UHGV virus genome: UHGV-0155266
Length of the DNA: 41,512 bases
From: a virus
Strand: one strand, 5' to 3'
In this document: positions 1-6,734 of the stretch, one piece after another
Numbering within the stretch: position 1 is the stretch's first letter
How the letters are laid out: each line of letters starts with the position of its first letter
Program-made: the position numbers and the translations under genes
The notes under the pieces: generated by a model
Database searches by the model: none
The model's input: only the letters and a program-made list of their open reading frames with translations
Told to the model about the DNA's origin: nothing

Positions 1-49
1 ACAGTCGTGACACGACGCTGAAAGTTCCCAAACACACAGGAAACAGAAA

Positions 50-229
50 ATGAACGTGAATACTGAGATTTTGAAACTCTGGCAATCTAGGGGCGAAAAT
101 GAGCGCACCGGATTCGATGCGGAGAGGGTTGCAGATATTGCCTGGGAGCAGGGATTACAACTTCACCGCAACCGGCAGGAACATTACCAGCGAGTGATGT
201 ACCTCATAGGCCATCGCAATATCGGTTAA
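50..229 (+). CDS. small hypothetical protein (59 aa)
   Basis: ATG at 50 with AGGAAA 8 nt upstream, in-frame stop at 227-229, followed by a hairpin and T-run. Below the ORF-track length cutoff; no recognisable motif. Confidence 0.3.
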   Translation: MNVNTEILKLWQSRGENERTGFDAERVADIAWEQGLQLHRNRQEHYQRVMYLIGHRNIG

Positions 230-237
230 CTCATACA

Positions 238-258
238 GGCCGCGCATGCGGCCTTTTT
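238..258 (+). terminator. rho-independent terminator-like hairpin
   Basis: GGCCGC/GCGGCC stem (238-243 and 248-253) followed by TTTTT at 254-258; lies between the small ORF and the convergent 445-aa gene. Confidence 0.5.
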
Positions 259-1594
259 AGTCTGGATATTGAACATCTACTTCATTTTTTCTAATCTCTG
301 ATGAGATTTTTGAGCACGCTTTTATTAATTCATCCAAGACAATAGCGAGTTTGGCAAAATCATAATTGCTAAAACCCTTACTTCCTGGTTTTAGTTTCAT
401 GAATTTTTTCGTGTAATAGTCTTTATTTTCCAGCGCTCCTTGATAAGCATCACTTTCCTTTTTGTAATTTGACCACCGGATTTTCGCTTCATCATAATCA
501 GAAAATCTTAGATCCAGATAGCATTCAATCGCTACAGCCCGGCCATTGATGTTTTCATAGGTAACGCCGTGAGGACCAATAGCTGGAAATTGATTGAAAT
601 GAGGAAGATCAGGAAGATGAATGCAGCTAATATTGTGAGGCAATGCGAGTTTGCGGATTTTTTCATATGCCTCAATCCCTTCGCAATCATTATCTAACAC
701 GAAAACAATCAAGTTTTGAATGTCGATTTTTACGAGCCCAGCAGCGAACTTAACCAGATTTCCTGAACCAGTGAACGGGTACCCTTCACTCATGTCGATA
801 AAGTGAAAAAAATCTTCTACATCAGGCCGTAAGAGGTGCAATGCGTATTTGATGACGTTGGAGTCGGTGCTTCCCTCGGTGGCAATCAGGAACTTGTCAC
901 GTCTGCGAGCATTTACCTGAATATCTTTTATATTCGCATAACCAGCAGAAACTAGATCTCCGTAATCCCAAGTGACGAATTCATTATGATTATTTGGATT
1001 TTCGGCCAAAAGTCGCATCACTGAGTATGGATGTAGTATGCTAACTAAAGTCCCAAAAGCAGACTTTTCAGACCAAGCATTATCAAAGGCATTGTCGTAT
1101 TGGGGTATCCTGCTTAATAATTCATCATTATTAAATCGGCCCTTGATAAGCTCGCGTTCTTTTATTCTATCTTTTAAGCTAATATAATCATCGTTTAGCT
1201 CGCTAATATTTACGCTCTTGATGAAGTTAACGAATTCATCAAAGCTCATCATGTTACTAATTGGCTTTGCATATTCCGGACAGGATTCGTTAAATTCCTC
1301 TTGGTATTCAATTGAATCTTTAGCCATGAGTTCATACTCATAGCGTATATTTTCAAGGGTGAAACCCAACAATTCCAATCGGTAGGCAACTTGCCCCAAA
1401 GGCTTACGCAACACAGTACGACAGAGGATGCCATCAGGAGTGTCGAAGTCCTCTCCTTCCTCTATTTGATCTTCATTTAGTGGTTTGACGTGATGATCGG
1501 CACTTTGAAACAGGCCTCCATGATCTATACCCAGCGAGTTCTTACTCCAATCTAGCCCCACTCCTGACACTTCAAGAGAAATTACAGTACCCAT
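257..1594 (-). CDS. Toprim-domain protein with uncharacterised N-terminal half (candidate nuclease/defence effector)
   Basis: 445-aa ORF with AAGG upstream. Translation has EGxxD (LIATEGSTD, near aa 238-244) and DxDxxG (LDNDCEG, near aa 300-306) about 60 aa apart, the Toprim signature. No Walker A motif anywhere. Confidence 0.8.
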   Translation of the reverse strand: MGTVISLEVSGVGLDWSKNSLGIDHGGLFQSADHHVKPLNEDQIEEGEDFDTPDGILCRTVLRKPLGQVAYRLELLGFTLENIRYEYELMAKDSIEYQEEFNESCPEYAKPISNMMSFDEFVNFIKSVNISELNDDYISLKDRIKERELIKGRFNNDELLSRIPQYDNAFDNAWSEKSAFGTLVSILHPYSVMRLLAENPNNHNEFVTWDYGDLVSAGYANIKDIQVNARRRDKFLIATEGSTDSNVIKYALHLLRPDVEDFFHFIDMSEGYPFTGSGNLVKFAAGLVKIDIQNLIVFVLDNDCEGIEAYEKIRKLALPHNISCIHLPDLPHFNQFPAIGPHGVTYENINGRAVAIECYLDLRFSDYDEAKIRWSNYKKESDAYQGALENKDYYTKKFMKLKPGSKGFSNYDFAKLAIVLDELIKACSKISSEIRKNEVDVQYPD

Positions 1595-1975
1595 AGTTCA
1601 ACCTTTGAATGGCATTTTCCGTTGTACCGCAATACTACCAATACGCCGATTGGGCATCCATGATTTGAACTGGCTTCTATGCTCTATTTTTAGCAAATTG
1701 GACTTACGCCACCCTGGTTGCGTCTACTTCTCGCTCACAAGGAGCCCTCAGCAACGCTAGCTCGTCCGCGCCGTGCCAGAAGCGGACGTTGACAGCAACT
1801 CATAATGCAAATTTTCAGGGAGTGGATCGTCATGTACTGAATTGAGCCTAAGTTACAGATGATACTTGCTGTAAAAGCAGGAGAGGAATTATTTACTCTA
1901 TTGTGATAAGAGCGTTTTTATATTAATATCTTACATACAAATAGATATCTGAATAAACATTCAATAAGGTTCCAT

Positions 1976-2905
1976 ATGTCTGAAATAACTTCAGCTCCTG
2001 CTGTTATGGCGGCACTAGTATCTGCATTAGTTACGGTTTTATTATTTTTTATAAAAGGTGTATGCACACCTTTATGGAATAAATATTTCATTGTTTACAA
2101 AATCAAAGTTGAACATAGCTACGAACAAAAGAAGAAAATCAAAGAGGCGATATCAAAATATAAAATGCCTTTACTCGATTCAGCTGAGTCATTGAATCAT
2201 AGGTTGTGGAATTTTTCAGGAAATTGCACTAAAGGATGGCATAATTTCAAAAATAATGAATCAATTGGTGATAAATATTACCTACAAACTTTTTGTTATC
2301 GATTTTTAGCATTTTATGCTTGGTGTATAAAGTTCGAAAGAGAGTTGATATATTTAGATGTAACACTTTCAGAAAAGAACGATCTTTATTTTGTGAAGTA
2401 TATTAAAACCATGCAAAATATATTTTGCGATGCTTCGATGTTGAGTGGGACTGGTTATGATAATGAGCATGCTGTAGACCATTTTTTCAAGGATGACCTT
2501 ATTAGTATTGTGGAAAAAATGATTACACCTACAGGAGTTATTACTTATTCAGAATTCAAATCTAAATCAGAGTCTGAATTAGACTATACACAGGTTTGCA
2601 AGTACATATCCACCATAATGAGTGACAAATCTTGCAATAAATGGCATTTAATTAACTGTTTCCATTTTATCCTGATGGCCTTTTTGTCAAAGTATGGATA
2701 TGACTATCAAAGAACTGGGTTGTTTAAACTATATAAGCTGCGCTGCTCAGAACCTCAAAATAAGCTGATAAATAATTTTGAAAGGTTAGTATTCAATGCA
2801 AGATTAAATAAATGCAGAGAAATAAAGAAAGCAATAACTATTCTCGAATGCAAATCTAAAATTGCCAATCTCTGTAATTCCCTGAAATTAATAAAAGAGA
2901 ATTAG
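1976..2905 (+). CDS. hypothetical membrane-anchored protein (AT-rich accessory gene)
   Basis: 309-aa ORF with one hydrophobic N-terminal helix (PAVMAALVSALVTVLLFFI), Lys/Asn/Tyr/Cys-rich remainder, AT-rich codon usage; divergent from the Toprim gene. No HExxH, so not Lit. Confidence 0.7.
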   Translation: MSEITSAPAVMAALVSALVTVLLFFIKGVCTPLWNKYFIVYKIKVEHSYEQKKKIKEAISKYKMPLLDSAESLNHRLWNFSGNCTKGWHNFKNNESIGDKYYLQTFCYRFLAFYAWCIKFERELIYLDVTLSEKNDLYFVKYIKTMQNIFCDASMLSGTGYDNEHAVDHFFKDDLISIVEKMITPTGVITYSEFKSKSESELDYTQVCKYISTIMSDKSCNKWHLINCFHFILMAFLSKYGYDYQRTGLFKLYKLRCSEPQNKLINNFERLVFNARLNKCREIKKAITILECKSKIANLCNSLKLIKEN

Positions 2906-3034
2906 CTTGTGAAGCATAAAACTAGTTGTTCTGTACGATAGAAAATGAGAGAACCCAAGTCCGCATTGTGAATAGTGTTTGAGCTGAAAATATCGCTAAG
3001 ACCCTGAAAATTTTTTGGAGAAGCAGATTTTAAT

Positions 3035-3058
3035 GTCCGCTTCTCGCTCTAAGCGGAC
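3035..3058. terminator. bidirectional terminator-like hairpin between accessory gene and int
   Basis: GTCCGCTT/AAGCGGAC 8-bp stem with 8-nt loop, T-rich on both sides; sits between convergent genes ending at 2905 and 3119. Confidence 0.5.
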
Positions 3059-3118
3059 TGTTTGAAGCTTTTTCATGAGTGTTAAGAAAATCAAGATGGC
3101 GTTGAATCGCTTGAATTT

Positions 3119-4249
3119 TCACAAAGCTACTTTGCTCCAGCCTTTCCCACGGTCATCATGATAACGATCGGTTTGTTGCTGTGTTTTGTGACCAAGTAGT
3201 TTTTGTGTATCTAATCCCTGTTCCTTGTAAAGGCGTTCAGATAAAGATCGTTGCTCATGGAATGTGGCAGGTGAACCTTCCCCCCAGTTAATTTCTGCTA
3301 AATCTCTTGCTTTACTAAAATTCATCGTCAATGTATTGGATTTTACCTGTGCTCCACGTTCTGCCTGCGAAGTTGAACGGAAAAAATGCACTAAGTATGG
3401 GCTGACTGCATAGTCACGGCAGCGAGCTACTACATCACGTAAACTCCAGTTAATCGCATTGAGGCGAAGAGAAAGCGGAATTGCGATTTTGCTCCCTGTC
3501 TTTTCTTGTACGACATGAAGATGATCATCCCAAATATCGCTAAATTTCATACGTGAAATATCACCTAACCGCTGACCAGTAACCAAGGCTAGCAGCATGG
3601 CATTTCCCATGTAACGATGGCTGGCATCTGCGATATCGAATATTTTTTTCCATTCTTCGAGGCTCAGCCGTTGTCGGGTAATTTTTCTTCTTGGCTGTTT
3701 AGTAGCTAATGCAGGGTTATAGCCAGGAGGTACTTCTCCGTAGTGCTGCGCCTCTTTGAAAACATCAATCAGGACGGATCGAACTACTTGTGCCATTCTC
3801 GGTTGCCCAGCGGCAATATACTCATCAAGTAATTGTGCAATATCCCGGACATCAACAGCTGAAATTAGCTTCAATCCTGCCCGTTCTCTAAGTAAGGAGA
3901 CAGGTTTGGCTTTCTGCTTGTAGGTGTTGAGCTTTATATCACCACTTTTCAGCCTGTCATTCTGGATCGCTTGATAGCGATCTAACCAAGTTGACGTTGT
4001 GATTGCTTTCCCTTTGCTGGTTGCGATCCTGTCACTGATGGCCAGAATCTGCCGGGTTCTTTGTTCAGCCAGGCGCGTATTGGCTTCAGTGGCAATAGCG
4101 ATAGCTTCAGCTTCGTTTGTTCCCAAAGCATGGAATTTCCCTGTTATTGGATGCTTATACCGCCAATAGACTTTATTTACCTTTCGGCTATAAAGCGGAT
4201 ATAAGTTAGGGACTGAAACATTATTCTTACGCGGTCTGGCTGCCATCAC
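3119..4249 (-). CDS. int: tyrosine integrase (lambda Int family)
   Basis: 376-aa ORF with the lambda-integrase-like layout (N-terminal arm-binding region, C-terminal catalytic region ending with conserved His/Tyr context); overlaps xis 3' end. Start is GTG at 4249 or ATG at 4246. Confidence 0.9.
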   Translation of the reverse strand: MMAARPRKNNVSVPNLYPLYSRKVNKVYWRYKHPITGKFHALGTNEAEAIAIATEANTRLAEQRTRQILAISDRIATSKGKAITTSTWLDRYQAIQNDRLKSGDIKLNTYKQKAKPVSLLRERAGLKLISAVDVRDIAQLLDEYIAAGQPRMAQVVRSVLIDVFKEAQHYGEVPPGYNPALATKQPRRKITRQRLSLEEWKKIFDIADASHRYMGNAMLLALVTGQRLGDISRMKFSDIWDDHLHVVQEKTGSKIAIPLSLRLNAINWSLRDVVARCRDYAVSPYLVHFFRSTSQAERGAQVKSNTLTMNFSKARDLAEINWGEGSPATFHEQRSLSERLYKEQGLDTQKLLGHKTQQQTDRYHDDRGKGWSKVAL

Positions 4250-4472: not shown

Positions 4473-4965
4473 ATGCGATCACCTTATTACTTCAATAACT
4501 GTTCAGTCTCTGCGTATCGACCCTGCAAGGTCGGTTAGTTTCTCCACAAAACAGAGAAGAACACCTGCGATGACTGCCGCCTGGATGGATTGGGTTATGA
4601 GCCCGTCGTCCGGTGATGCTCTTCTCTGTTTTGTAAAAAGGATGGTACCAGCCGGAAGCAAGGGTACAAACTGGTACCGTCAAGACTACACACAGCATAA
4701 AGTTGTGGTTCCGGGTGCCTCCCGGTGCCTGGCGAAGGTTGCACACCAGACGGGTGGGTATCCACAGAAGGTCGACTGTCAGCCTCAACCTTAACCCGCG
4801 TGCGCTGAGCCGCATTCACCACAACGCTAAGGATTCTCTCTGGTTGAAAATACTTAGCTGTTATGTGCCTGCTTTTAGCCACATCAGGCGAGGTGGACCT
4901 GGTTATTCCCCAACAACAAGGATTCGGTTAATCTGGTTATCCCCAACAACGCAAAAGGAAAAGAA
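4473..4965. other. GC-rich structured non-coding segment (candidate ncRNA or cis-element)
   Basis: Four overlapping stop-free frames on both strands and no RBS-led protein-like ORF. Perfect 15-bp inverted repeat 4546-4560/4620-4634 with 59-nt loop; 8-bp inverted repeat 4644-4651/4671-4678; further short GC stems. Confidence 0.35.
4898..4950 (+). repeat. direct repeat pair CTGGTTAT(T)CCCCAACAAC upstream of ORF 4966
   Basis: cctggttattccccaacaac at 4898-4917 and tctggttatccccaacaac at 4932-4950, about 34 bp apart, just 5' of the ATG at 4966. Confidence 0.6.
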
Positions 4966-5660: not shown

Positions 5661-5843
5661 GTTGCTAACGAATCATCCTGGACTTCATATGCCCCAGGCG
5701 GCTACTTCGTGGGCGTCCTGCCTGTTCGTTGTTTTAACACCTTTAAGTTGTAATTTAGTTGTGGTTTTGAATGTTGTCAACAACTTTATGTGGTTTGAAC
5801 GAGTAGCCAAGGAGTGCAAGGATTATCAAAAAAAGGAGGTTGT

Positions 5844-6734
5844 ATGGAAGACGCGCTTTACGCTTTTAATTACACACAGAACCGGGACAAGTTATTTGCT
5901 AACTTGATTAGCATCATTGATGGAATCATTGCAGATGGAGTTGTCCGTGAAGAGGAGGTTCTTTACTTAGATACATGGTTACTTGAAGCAAAGCAGATTA
6001 TCAATAATGGAGTTATAAAAAGTCTATCAGCACGGGTGTCGGATATTCTTGCGGATGGAATAATCACATCAGAAGAACGTGATGACCTTAAAAATAGCCT
6101 TCTCCAAATACAGAGGGAAATTCTTGATATCCCTGAAATTGATTTTTACTCCAAGGATGTAGATGTCCATTTACTTAATGGACTATGTAAAGGATTAATT
6201 GCTGATCGGAACTTAACTCAAGAAGAAATAAGATATCTTAATTGGTGGCTTGAGCAAAATGGAGCTTTGAAGAACAACTACCCAGGAAAAAAACTTTATG
6301 CACTTGTAAAGGAAATTCTTAAAGATGGGGTTATTACTGAAGATGAGAGTTTAACTCTACATAAGGCATTAGTAGACTTCACAGGATGTGACTTGGAAAG
6401 TGGGGTGGTGGATGGTTTGGCGACCAGGCTGCCTATTGATGTAGGGGCTTCGATAGAGTTAGAGGGTAAAACCTATTGTCTTACAGGCACTTTTGTTGCA
6501 GGAAAGAGAGCCGTAGTTGAAAATTTGATTAAAAATGCTGGTGGGAACATCAGTAGTGGAATTACTCAAAAGTTGGATTTTTTAGTAATTGGGACGCTTT
6601 CCTCCCGTGATTGGAAATTCTCAAGTCACGGAAGGAAGATCGAAAAAGCTATATCTTATAGGGATGATAATGGTGCAAAACTTAAAATTATTTCTGAAGA
6701 AATGCTTTTCGATGCATTACCAAGTTCGCGATGA
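5844..6734 (+). CDS. BRCT-domain protein with four N-terminal tandem repeats
   Basis: ATG at 5844 after AGGAGG. C-terminus (GKTYCLTGTF...LDFLVIG...) follows the NAD-ligase-type BRCT pattern. N-terminus has four roughly 45-aa repeats sharing a D-G-[VI]-[VI]-T-x-[ED]-E motif. Confidence 0.75.
   Translation: MEDALYAFNYTQNRDKLFANLISIIDGIIADGVVREEEVLYLDTWLLEAKQIINNGVIKSLSARVSDILADGIITSEERDDLKNSLLQIQREILDIPEIDFYSKDVDVHLLNGLCKGLIADRNLTQEEIRYLNWWLEQNGALKNNYPGKKLYALVKEILKDGVITEDESLTLHKALVDFTGCDLESGVVDGLATRLPIDVGASIELEGKTYCLTGTFVAGKRAVVENLIKNAGGNISSGITQKLDFLVIGTLSSRDWKFSSHGRKIEKAISYRDDNGAKLKIISEEMLFDALPSSR

Follow-up and report, generated by a model that had tools for sequence, protein, structure and literature searches.

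An AT-rich orphan-family gene for a predicted membrane-anchored protein, found between hairpin repeats in the attL-int slot of an e14-like Escherichia coli prophage

The virus genome UHGV-0155266 (41,512 nucleotides (nt), referred to as the window) starts approximately 350 bp downstream of icd in an E. coli chromosome with an e14-like lambdoid prophage integrated at icd. An open reading frame (ORF) of 309 amino acids (aa), the subject of this report, is found on the + strand at positions 1976–2905 (stop codon included), with an ATG start and a TAG stop. It is situated between a gene for a 445 aa HEPN/Toprim-associated protein (positions 257–1594, − strand; PF18871 HEPN_Toprim_N, E-value = 1.7e-48) and the lambda-type integrase gene intE (3119–4249, − strand), the backbone gene that defines the attL-int cargo slot. 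Strain PS1Thumoskin9 has an identical 5-kb stretch, in which the gene order is icd, a 59 aa ORF (+), HEPN/Toprim (−), the 309 aa gene (+), intE (−) and xisE. An initial annotation, made from the sequence alone, described the gene as AT-rich and divergent from the Toprim gene, and both points hold: the GC content is 30.9%, against 39.7% for the HEPN/Toprim gene, 44.7% for intE and 49.3% for the window, and the spacer between the two divergent genes (1595–1975) is 381 bp long.

The same annotation raised the possibility that the 309 aa protein is a partner of the Toprim protein. Profile hidden Markov models of both families were run on six-frame translations of 37 fetched loci and 6 viral loci. 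Among complete E. coli genomes the 309 aa gene is present in 4 of 5426, each time beside HEPN/Toprim. However, all four copies belong to one 2.9-kb block (window 155–3058) with 99.8% identity, found twice in an e14-like prophage and twice in an island with tandem tyrosine recombinases. Since one nearly identical segment lies behind every co-occurrence, these represent a single evolutionary event, and the pairing is found solely in this E. coli cassette. Approximately 13 further independent contexts of the 309 aa family show no HEPN/Toprim gene within ~5 kb by the profile models; over all loci scanned the number is about 16, among them the Yersinia homologue (81% identity) and contig L168 (96% identity, described below).

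HEPN/Toprim relatives likewise lack a 309-family neighbour in three contexts: a Citrobacter CP4-type island (87% identity), a Klebsiella prophage end (51% identity) and an E. coli plasmid (71% DNA identity). In a fourth, a K. aerogenes plasmid, HEPN/Toprim faces, beyond the palindromic repeat described below, a restriction endonuclease gene instead of a 309-family gene. The HEPN/Toprim family is also about ten times larger, with 986 homologue clusters at 90% identity compared with 99 for the 309 aa family. A two-gene system, for example a 309 aa membrane sensor with a divergent HEPN/Toprim nuclease effector, would agree with the adjacent, divergent arrangement and with the joint movement of the 2.9-kb block in two mobile-element contexts and four genomes, but given the single segment behind these cases, the separate occurrence of each family, their unequal sizes and the repeat that parts the two modules here, as it parts HEPN/Toprim from the restriction endonuclease elsewhere, it is highly improbable. 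There is good support that the 309 aa gene is not an obligate partner of HEPN/Toprim and that the two form distinct cassettes, brought side by side at a palindromic repeat. They are both cargo of the same slot and are linked in the 2.9-kb E. coli block, but differ in family, distribution and cassette boundaries. Adjacency within a hotspot can mislead, and the "Toprim plus membrane protein" pair consists of two independent cassettes.

The extent of the 309 aa cassette is seen in an IMG/VR contig (L168) from another lambdoid prophage, in which a copy with 96% identity is found near SOS-peptidase, S24 and DinI genes. DNA homology between L168 and the window is limited to positions 1762–3049 (96.9% over 1288 nt), and neither HEPN/Toprim nor IntE is found within 5 kb of the copy. 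Because the homology is so confined and HEPN/Toprim is not part of it, the 309 aa gene forms its own mobile unit. The shared block includes a leader with a putative promoter region (1788–1975, +), which shows ~97% identity in L168 and is partly kept in Yersinia, the AT-rich block immediately 5′ of the ATG included, and a 3′ untranslated part (2906–3034, +). A candidate promoter for the gene, TTGTGA-17-TAATAT at ~1901–1929, was picked out by eye. A self-contained accessory cassette of ~1.3 kb (window ~1764–3058) that moves alone is well supported, and may be called a moron. Morons, a concept of Hendrix and colleagues, are independently transcribed accessory genes between backbone genes of lambdoid phages. 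The 309 aa cassette resembles these in its GC content (31% vs 45–49%), in having its own leader and hairpins on both sides, and in its presence or absence in a variable slot among otherwise related prophages. It differs in that the bounding hairpins are not ordinary terminators but copies of a dispersed repeat at which homology breaks.

Hairpin B (1764–1787; GTCCGCGCCGTGCCAGAAGCGGAC, of the form GTCCGC-GCCGTGCCAGAA-GCGGAC) forms the left cassette boundary, and hairpin A (3035–3058; GTCCGCTTCTCGCTCTAAGCGGAC) forms the right boundary at the junction with the e14 backbone. The pattern GTCCGC-N(6-20)-GCGGAC, by which both were located, occurs exactly twice in the window, each time as N12, against 0.02 occurrences expected. 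Hairpin A displays a DNA fold of −9.5 kcal/mol (z = −2.5). A degenerate hairpin A′ (1722–1745; GTCTACTTCTCGCTCACAAGGAGC), together with a spacer and hairpin B, makes up an A-B repeat of ~66 nt at 1722–1787; intact A-B tandems occur elsewhere. A third, 5′-truncated hairpin copy is situated ~110 nt to the left of the window start (L001, 5876–5894). Homology in both Yersinia and L168 starts inside the loop of hairpin B, and that of L168 ends at 3049, within hairpin A. In the island context homology ends at 3058, and homology to the K-12 e14 backbone begins at 3034. Each of these blocks has its limit at one of the two hairpins.

The gene had been described as bracketed by terminators. Hairpins do flank it on both sides (1764–1787 and 3035–3058), but neither carries a proper T-tract and a terminator scan gave no hit between 255 and 3300. 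The K-12 version of the downstream hairpin, a type-A copy immediately after the slot gene lit, carries a T-run.

The stem of this hairpin family is GTCCGC(T)/(A)GCGGAC, with the loop TTYTCGCTCAYA in type A and YYYGTGCCARVA in type B, and the two types often form an A-B tandem of ~70 nt. The ~70-nt form is present in 124 plasmid records, always unannotated, including 58 from Pantoea, 23 from Klebsiella and 13 from Enterobacter, and the exact B hairpin is found in at least 120 IMG/VR contigs. Among the loci collected here, copies are also present in L019–L022, L038, L039, L044, L168 and L046–L165. Within a locus the copies are co-oriented and placed between one- or two-gene units. On the K. aerogenes plasmid the array reads [B] orf59 and HEPN/Toprim [A-B] restriction endonuclease [B]; an E. 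coli plasmid shows gene [B] gene [A-B] DUF6602 [B]; and in Yersinia the order is [B] 309 aa homologue [B] DUF3800 and lipase [B]. Cargo ORFs beside the hairpin include HerA, type I restriction R-like, YobI-like NTPase and DUF7380/DUF4209 proteins, and 5 of 10 have no Pfam match. When 128 hairpin copies were compared, the left flanks fell into 46 clusters and the right flanks into 79, and a single left flank was seen with 16 different right flanks. Similarity does not extend past ...GCGGAC, which is followed by RTTR in 64 of the 128. A literature search with the hairpin sequence returned no paper containing it, and Rfam has no family for the repeat.

From these sequence comparisons the A-B repeat may be read as a junction element where accessory cassettes get exchanged; homologous exchange at short shared repeats fits the data equally well as site-specific exchange. 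The arrangement has likenesses to integron attC sites and to IS200/IS605 passenger genes, in that cargo units of one or two genes are parted by co-oriented imperfect palindromes, homology breaks at the hairpin and RTTR is found 3′ of the stem in half of the copies. Similar subterminal hairpins in the same orientation at both ends, as in IS200/IS605 elements, are present in the 309 aa cassette. However, genes lie in either orientation relative to these hairpins, and the R″/R′ core sites of integrons (RYYYAAC/GTTRRRY) are absent from the cassette: GTTGACA is found 3′ of hairpin B and TGTTTGA 3′ of hairpin A, where R′ GTTRRRY is expected. There is no integron integrase nearby, the sole recombinase being the lambda-type IntE, and identification of the hairpin as an attC site was rejected for lack of core sites and IntI. 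No Y1 transposase was seen in the E. coli loci; Y1_Tnp is adjacent only in a distant metagenomic locus (L015, 4272–4724), where the gene just upstream of a 309-family member encodes a Y1 transposase of the IS200/IS605 type. The hairpin was also considered as an int-proximal feature; this was rejected, as IntE is rarely near the hairpin in viral contigs.

The spacer between the two divergent genes was noted in the initial annotation for a GC-rich core near 1700–1800 that could hold divergent promoters or a small RNA. The core is present, with 50.7% GC over 1600–1800. The 381 bp consist of three parts: the 5′ region of the HEPN/Toprim module (1595–~1715, − strand), which matches the locus of the Citrobacter homologue for ~120 nt upstream of the ATG (to position 1715) and then diverges; the palindromic repeat (1722–1787); and the AT-rich leader of the 309 aa gene (1788–1975). 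The dispersed A-B repeat accounts for most of the GC-rich core, which is composed of the conserved HEPN/Toprim 5′ region and this repeat. The intergenic region has no Rfam match at E-value ≤ 1, a scan of 1595–1975 yields no consensus sigma-70 promoter, and the fold of 1716–1795 is no better than that of shuffled sequences (z = −0.4 and −0.1 on the two strands).

A small RNA or a pair of divergent promoters controlling both genes would be in keeping with such a GC content between AT-rich genes, with the conserved hairpin and with the G-U-compatible changes noted by eye in the flanking stems of some hairpin copies elsewhere. These readings are very unlikely, since the Rfam, promoter and folding results are all negative, the element recurs as a dispersed repeat between genes that are unrelated (in the 124 plasmid records and in at least 120 viral contigs), and the flanking homology breaks within the element, as at a recombination junction.

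The 309 aa protein belongs to a sizeable family. Its homologues form 99 clusters at 90% identity, and a profile built from 38 of these retrieves 594 clusters at 50% identity, 184 of them with an E-value of 1e-30 or better. Nearly all of the 594 are 280–330 aa long with an identical layout. Alignments of homologues begin at residue 1 of the 309 aa protein. The hosts include Entero-, Altero-, Pseudo- and Aeromonadales, Alcaligenes and delta-proteobacteria, and further Flavobacteriia, Lentisphaeria and Robiginitomaculum; every source name in the family is "hypothetical protein". AlphaFold2, run with the alignment, gives an all-alpha model with a predicted local distance difference test score of 90.8 and a predicted template modelling score of 0.84. 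The model consists of one unbroken helix at residues 8–86 followed by approximately ten more helices. In view of the 99 and 594 homologue clusters and the confident model, the reading frame is not a chance ORF.

The single N-terminal transmembrane helix and cytoplasmic domain of the initial annotation agree with these data. The Kyte-Doolittle profile (19-residue windows) has its sole peak, a maximum of 2.53, at residues 8–26, with no second hydrophobic segment, and the anchor, placed at residues 7–27 by hydropathy and the AlphaFold2 helix, is encoded at 1994–2056 (+). The same N-terminal hydrophobic segment is found in 95% of 155 family members. Charges flanking the anchor are −1 on the N side and +6 over residues 28–65; with an acidic N flank and a basic C flank, the N-terminus is predicted outside and the C-terminus inside, which places the globular domain in the cytoplasm. 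The product is thus predicted to cross the inner membrane once, with ~6 residues outside; its one transmembrane helix is continuous with a basic helical stalk, which is predicted to lead into an all-alpha cytoplasmic domain of ~250 residues. Some distant members have a longer coiled-coil-like stalk inserted between anchor and domain.

Close homologues share 18 invariant positions. Over 117 sequences with 19–37% identity, G241 is invariant, R76, R109, D128 and D136 are conserved at 90% or above, and D168-H169 is present in most family members. There is good support in these alignments for R76, R109, D128, D136 and G241 as a putative conserved charged core of the cytoplasmic domain. The protein is rich in Lys (35), Tyr (19) and Cys (12), as first described; the Cys residues show no conservation among homologues. 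The earlier description of a protein with no recognisable motif is also borne out, with HExxH, CxxC, Rx4-6H, Walker A and HD all absent by sequence scan. No Fic-like motif is present in the sequence, and Rx4-6H, within a four-helix bundle, is the pattern expected of an HEPN RNase.

Pfam, NCBIfam, PADLOC and PHROGs contain no family for the 309 aa protein or for the 117 diverse relatives; PADLOC gave just single, inconsistent and weak matches on the 117. Sequence-profile searches of the PDB with the 309 aa protein were empty, Foldseek against the PDB and viral structures gave a best E-value of 0.08, and a literature search on the RefSeq protein accessions found no matching paper. The family is a genuine orphan, with a confident fold and no detectable sequence or fold relatives. 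The only domain fusion, and the only significant domain match, in the family is seen in a metagenomic member of 538 aa (P0244) with a C-terminal alpha/beta hydrolase (Hydrolase_4/Peptidase_S9, E-value = 5.6e-10).

Of 5426 complete E. coli genomes, 2859 (approximately half) have the intE/xisE backbone, and the occupants of the slot differ among strains. In K-12 and in strain 1297KP the icd-intE interval contains ymfD-ymfE (−) and lit (+), with lit at the position of the 309 aa gene. Strain H22 carries a DUF2357 protein and a large hypothetical protein, strain PSS-08-2 an 859 aa AAA ATPase and a hypothetical protein, and strain TUM1880 three hypothetical proteins. The icd-intE (attL-int) interval of e14-like prophages, window ~1–3118, is a hotspot of variable cargo, and among its occupants an abortive-infection gene is the only one that has been characterised. 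E. coli ECONIH5 (L027, NZ_CP026202.1) was considered as an empty site and rejected, since it derives from the same prophage by deletion: the HEPN/Toprim gene, reduced to its 3′ third, is fused there to a truncated intE, and the 309 aa gene is lost.

Lit is the cell-death peptidase of e14 (peptidase U49), which is triggered by the T4 Gol peptide and has EF-Tu as its target. The 309 aa gene resembles lit in prophage family and slot, in its placement directly downstream of intE, with which it converges, in being followed by the same type-A hairpin, in the size of its product (309 vs 297 aa) and in being single-gene cargo. The 309 aa protein has no homology to Lit or YmfE, the K-12 slot occupants, however. 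BLASTP against K-12 Lit gives an E-value of 12 and the HExxH zinc-protease motif is absent, so the product is not Lit, as the initial annotation also stated; it further differs in its N-terminal anchor and in a different predicted all-alpha fold. Lactococcal AbiP and Sie2009, P22 SieB and HK97 gp15 are single-pass membrane-anchored abortive-infection or superinfection-exclusion proteins. These are small prophage or plasmid single-gene products with one N-terminal membrane helix, like the 309 aa protein. The 309 aa family differs in spanning several phyla with an invariant charged core, and the large domain of the 309 aa protein is predicted to be cytoplasmic.

The neighbours of 309-family homologues are heterogeneous across loci. 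One member is found with an HNH_2 gene in a P4-like satellite beside Psu/Delta. Others have an AAA_15/AAA_21 ATPase, RelA_SpoT and DUF4062 proteins or a weak Macro match nearby; one adjoins DUF3800 and lipase genes at a prophage lysis end, and prophage ends are among the locations seen. Toxin-antitoxin or transposition genes (CcdAB, HipA, TniQ) are near some members, but no adjacent small partner, as a possible antitoxin, is conserved in the neighbourhoods. A Pseudomonas moorei copy near a TniQ gene is split by a frameshift (L005, 5986–6859). In E. coli P393-F10 the island with the 2.9-kb block (L002, 12835–18566) contains two tandem tyrosine recombinases and two unknowns of 788 aa and 144 aa, next to hipA. 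It resembles the multi-integrase (GInt-type) islands that have been reported as carriers of defence cargo (PMC10121019).

The other option raised in the initial annotation, an independent exclusion gene, agrees with all the findings and is preferred here. Given this context, including the lit-slot position and the mobile-element and defence-type neighbours of homologues, we tentatively suggest that the 309 aa protein could be a stand-alone membrane-tethered phage-exclusion or abortive-infection protein, a reading that falls somewhat short of probable. During infection, the cytoplasmic domain would sense, bind or modify some target on the inner side of the membrane; the role of the anchor and stalk would be either to localise this activity or to bring about oligomerisation and membrane damage. 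Expression would probably be low, from the gene's own weak AT-rich promoter, and possibly silenced by H-NS.

Several points weigh against a role in exclusion. No homology ties the family to defence, and the 309 aa protein has no match among the 5027 models of PADLOC-DB 2.0. No 309-family match was found by tblastn in 50,697 sequenced phage records and 72,556 plasmids, and the neighbourhoods of several members (GNAT, sulfur-oxidoreductase, porin) are nondescript. Superinfection-exclusion proteins tend toward a narrow range, and conservation across phyla would be unusual for them. The residues with the strongest conservation (two Arg, two Asp, one Gly) may serve the structure and not catalysis, and both the topology and the promoter are predictions only.

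The main rival is a non-defence accessory role, as an addiction or toxin module, an inner-leaflet envelope or lipid enzyme acting in lysogenic conversion, or a regulator of a membrane process. The attL-int slot of related Shigella phages holds lysogenic-conversion genes, and SfII, SfIV and SfV have backbone segments in common with the window. A charged core kept across phyla suggests an enzyme or a ligand binder, one member is fused to an alpha/beta-hydrolase domain, and some neighbourhoods are not defence-like or include toxin-antitoxin genes. Yet the protein has no similarity to known conversion, toxin or lipid enzyme families, there is no conserved small neighbour to act as antitoxin, and the K-12 slot holds a bona fide abortive-infection gene. 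A role of this kind is possible but on the unlikely side.

A broader, joint reading takes the 309 aa family as a new, structurally orphan family of single-gene membrane-tethered anti-phage effectors and, in addition, the A/B repeat (GTCCGC/GCGGAC) as the site of hairpin-guided cassette swapping. Both would have to hold, which is distinctly unlikely. By analogy, and at the same low probability, enterobacterial prophages, plasmids and islands would then exchange many accessory or defence cassettes, that of the 309 aa gene among them, in a manner like that of integron attC recombination but distinct from it. No description of such a hairpin-guided system was found.

Other features of the window are as follows. 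The HEPN/Toprim protein shows the Toprim-type motifs E240-G-S-T-D and D301-N-D (EGxxD, DxD). PADLOC gave no match for it either, and a literature search on "HEPN-Toprim" and PF18871 returned no paper with these terms. The 59 aa ORF (50–229, +) is convergent with HEPN/Toprim and has tblastn identities of 80–93% in L029–L033 and L039. Close relatives of HEPN/Toprim have it alongside them in Citrobacter and on the K. aerogenes plasmid. In the island context a truncated form is present, and none was found beside more distant HEPN/Toprim relatives; the ORF could act together with HEPN/Toprim or simply be linked to it. The terminator scan places a GC-rich terminator-like hairpin at 237–254, between this ORF and the HEPN/Toprim stop.

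In the early region of the prophage, beside the repressor genes, a 306 aa protein (5814–6734, +) has a C-terminal BRCT domain (Pfam E-value = 1.4e-6) and matches the PADLOC candidate defence family PDC-S48 (E-value = 2.7e-7). A GC-rich stretch downstream of xisE (4632–4855, −), where RefSeq annotates a frameshifted hypothetical gene, gives a sub-threshold match to the Rfam small RNA STnc100 (31.8 bits against a gathering threshold of 47, E-value = 3.7e-4).

An AT-rich single-gene cargo in a prophage hotspot is familiar; what is new is a protein with no known sequence or fold relatives. The hairpin repeat at its borders, which is seen again at mosaic junctions of many enterobacterial mobile elements, could serve as a marker for further cargo or defence genes, and may point to a mechanism of cassette exchange. 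If the 309 aa protein does protect against phage, it would represent a new single-gene defence family with a new fold at the classical lit slot of e14, itself a hotspot of changing cargo that approximately half of the complete E. coli genomes possess.

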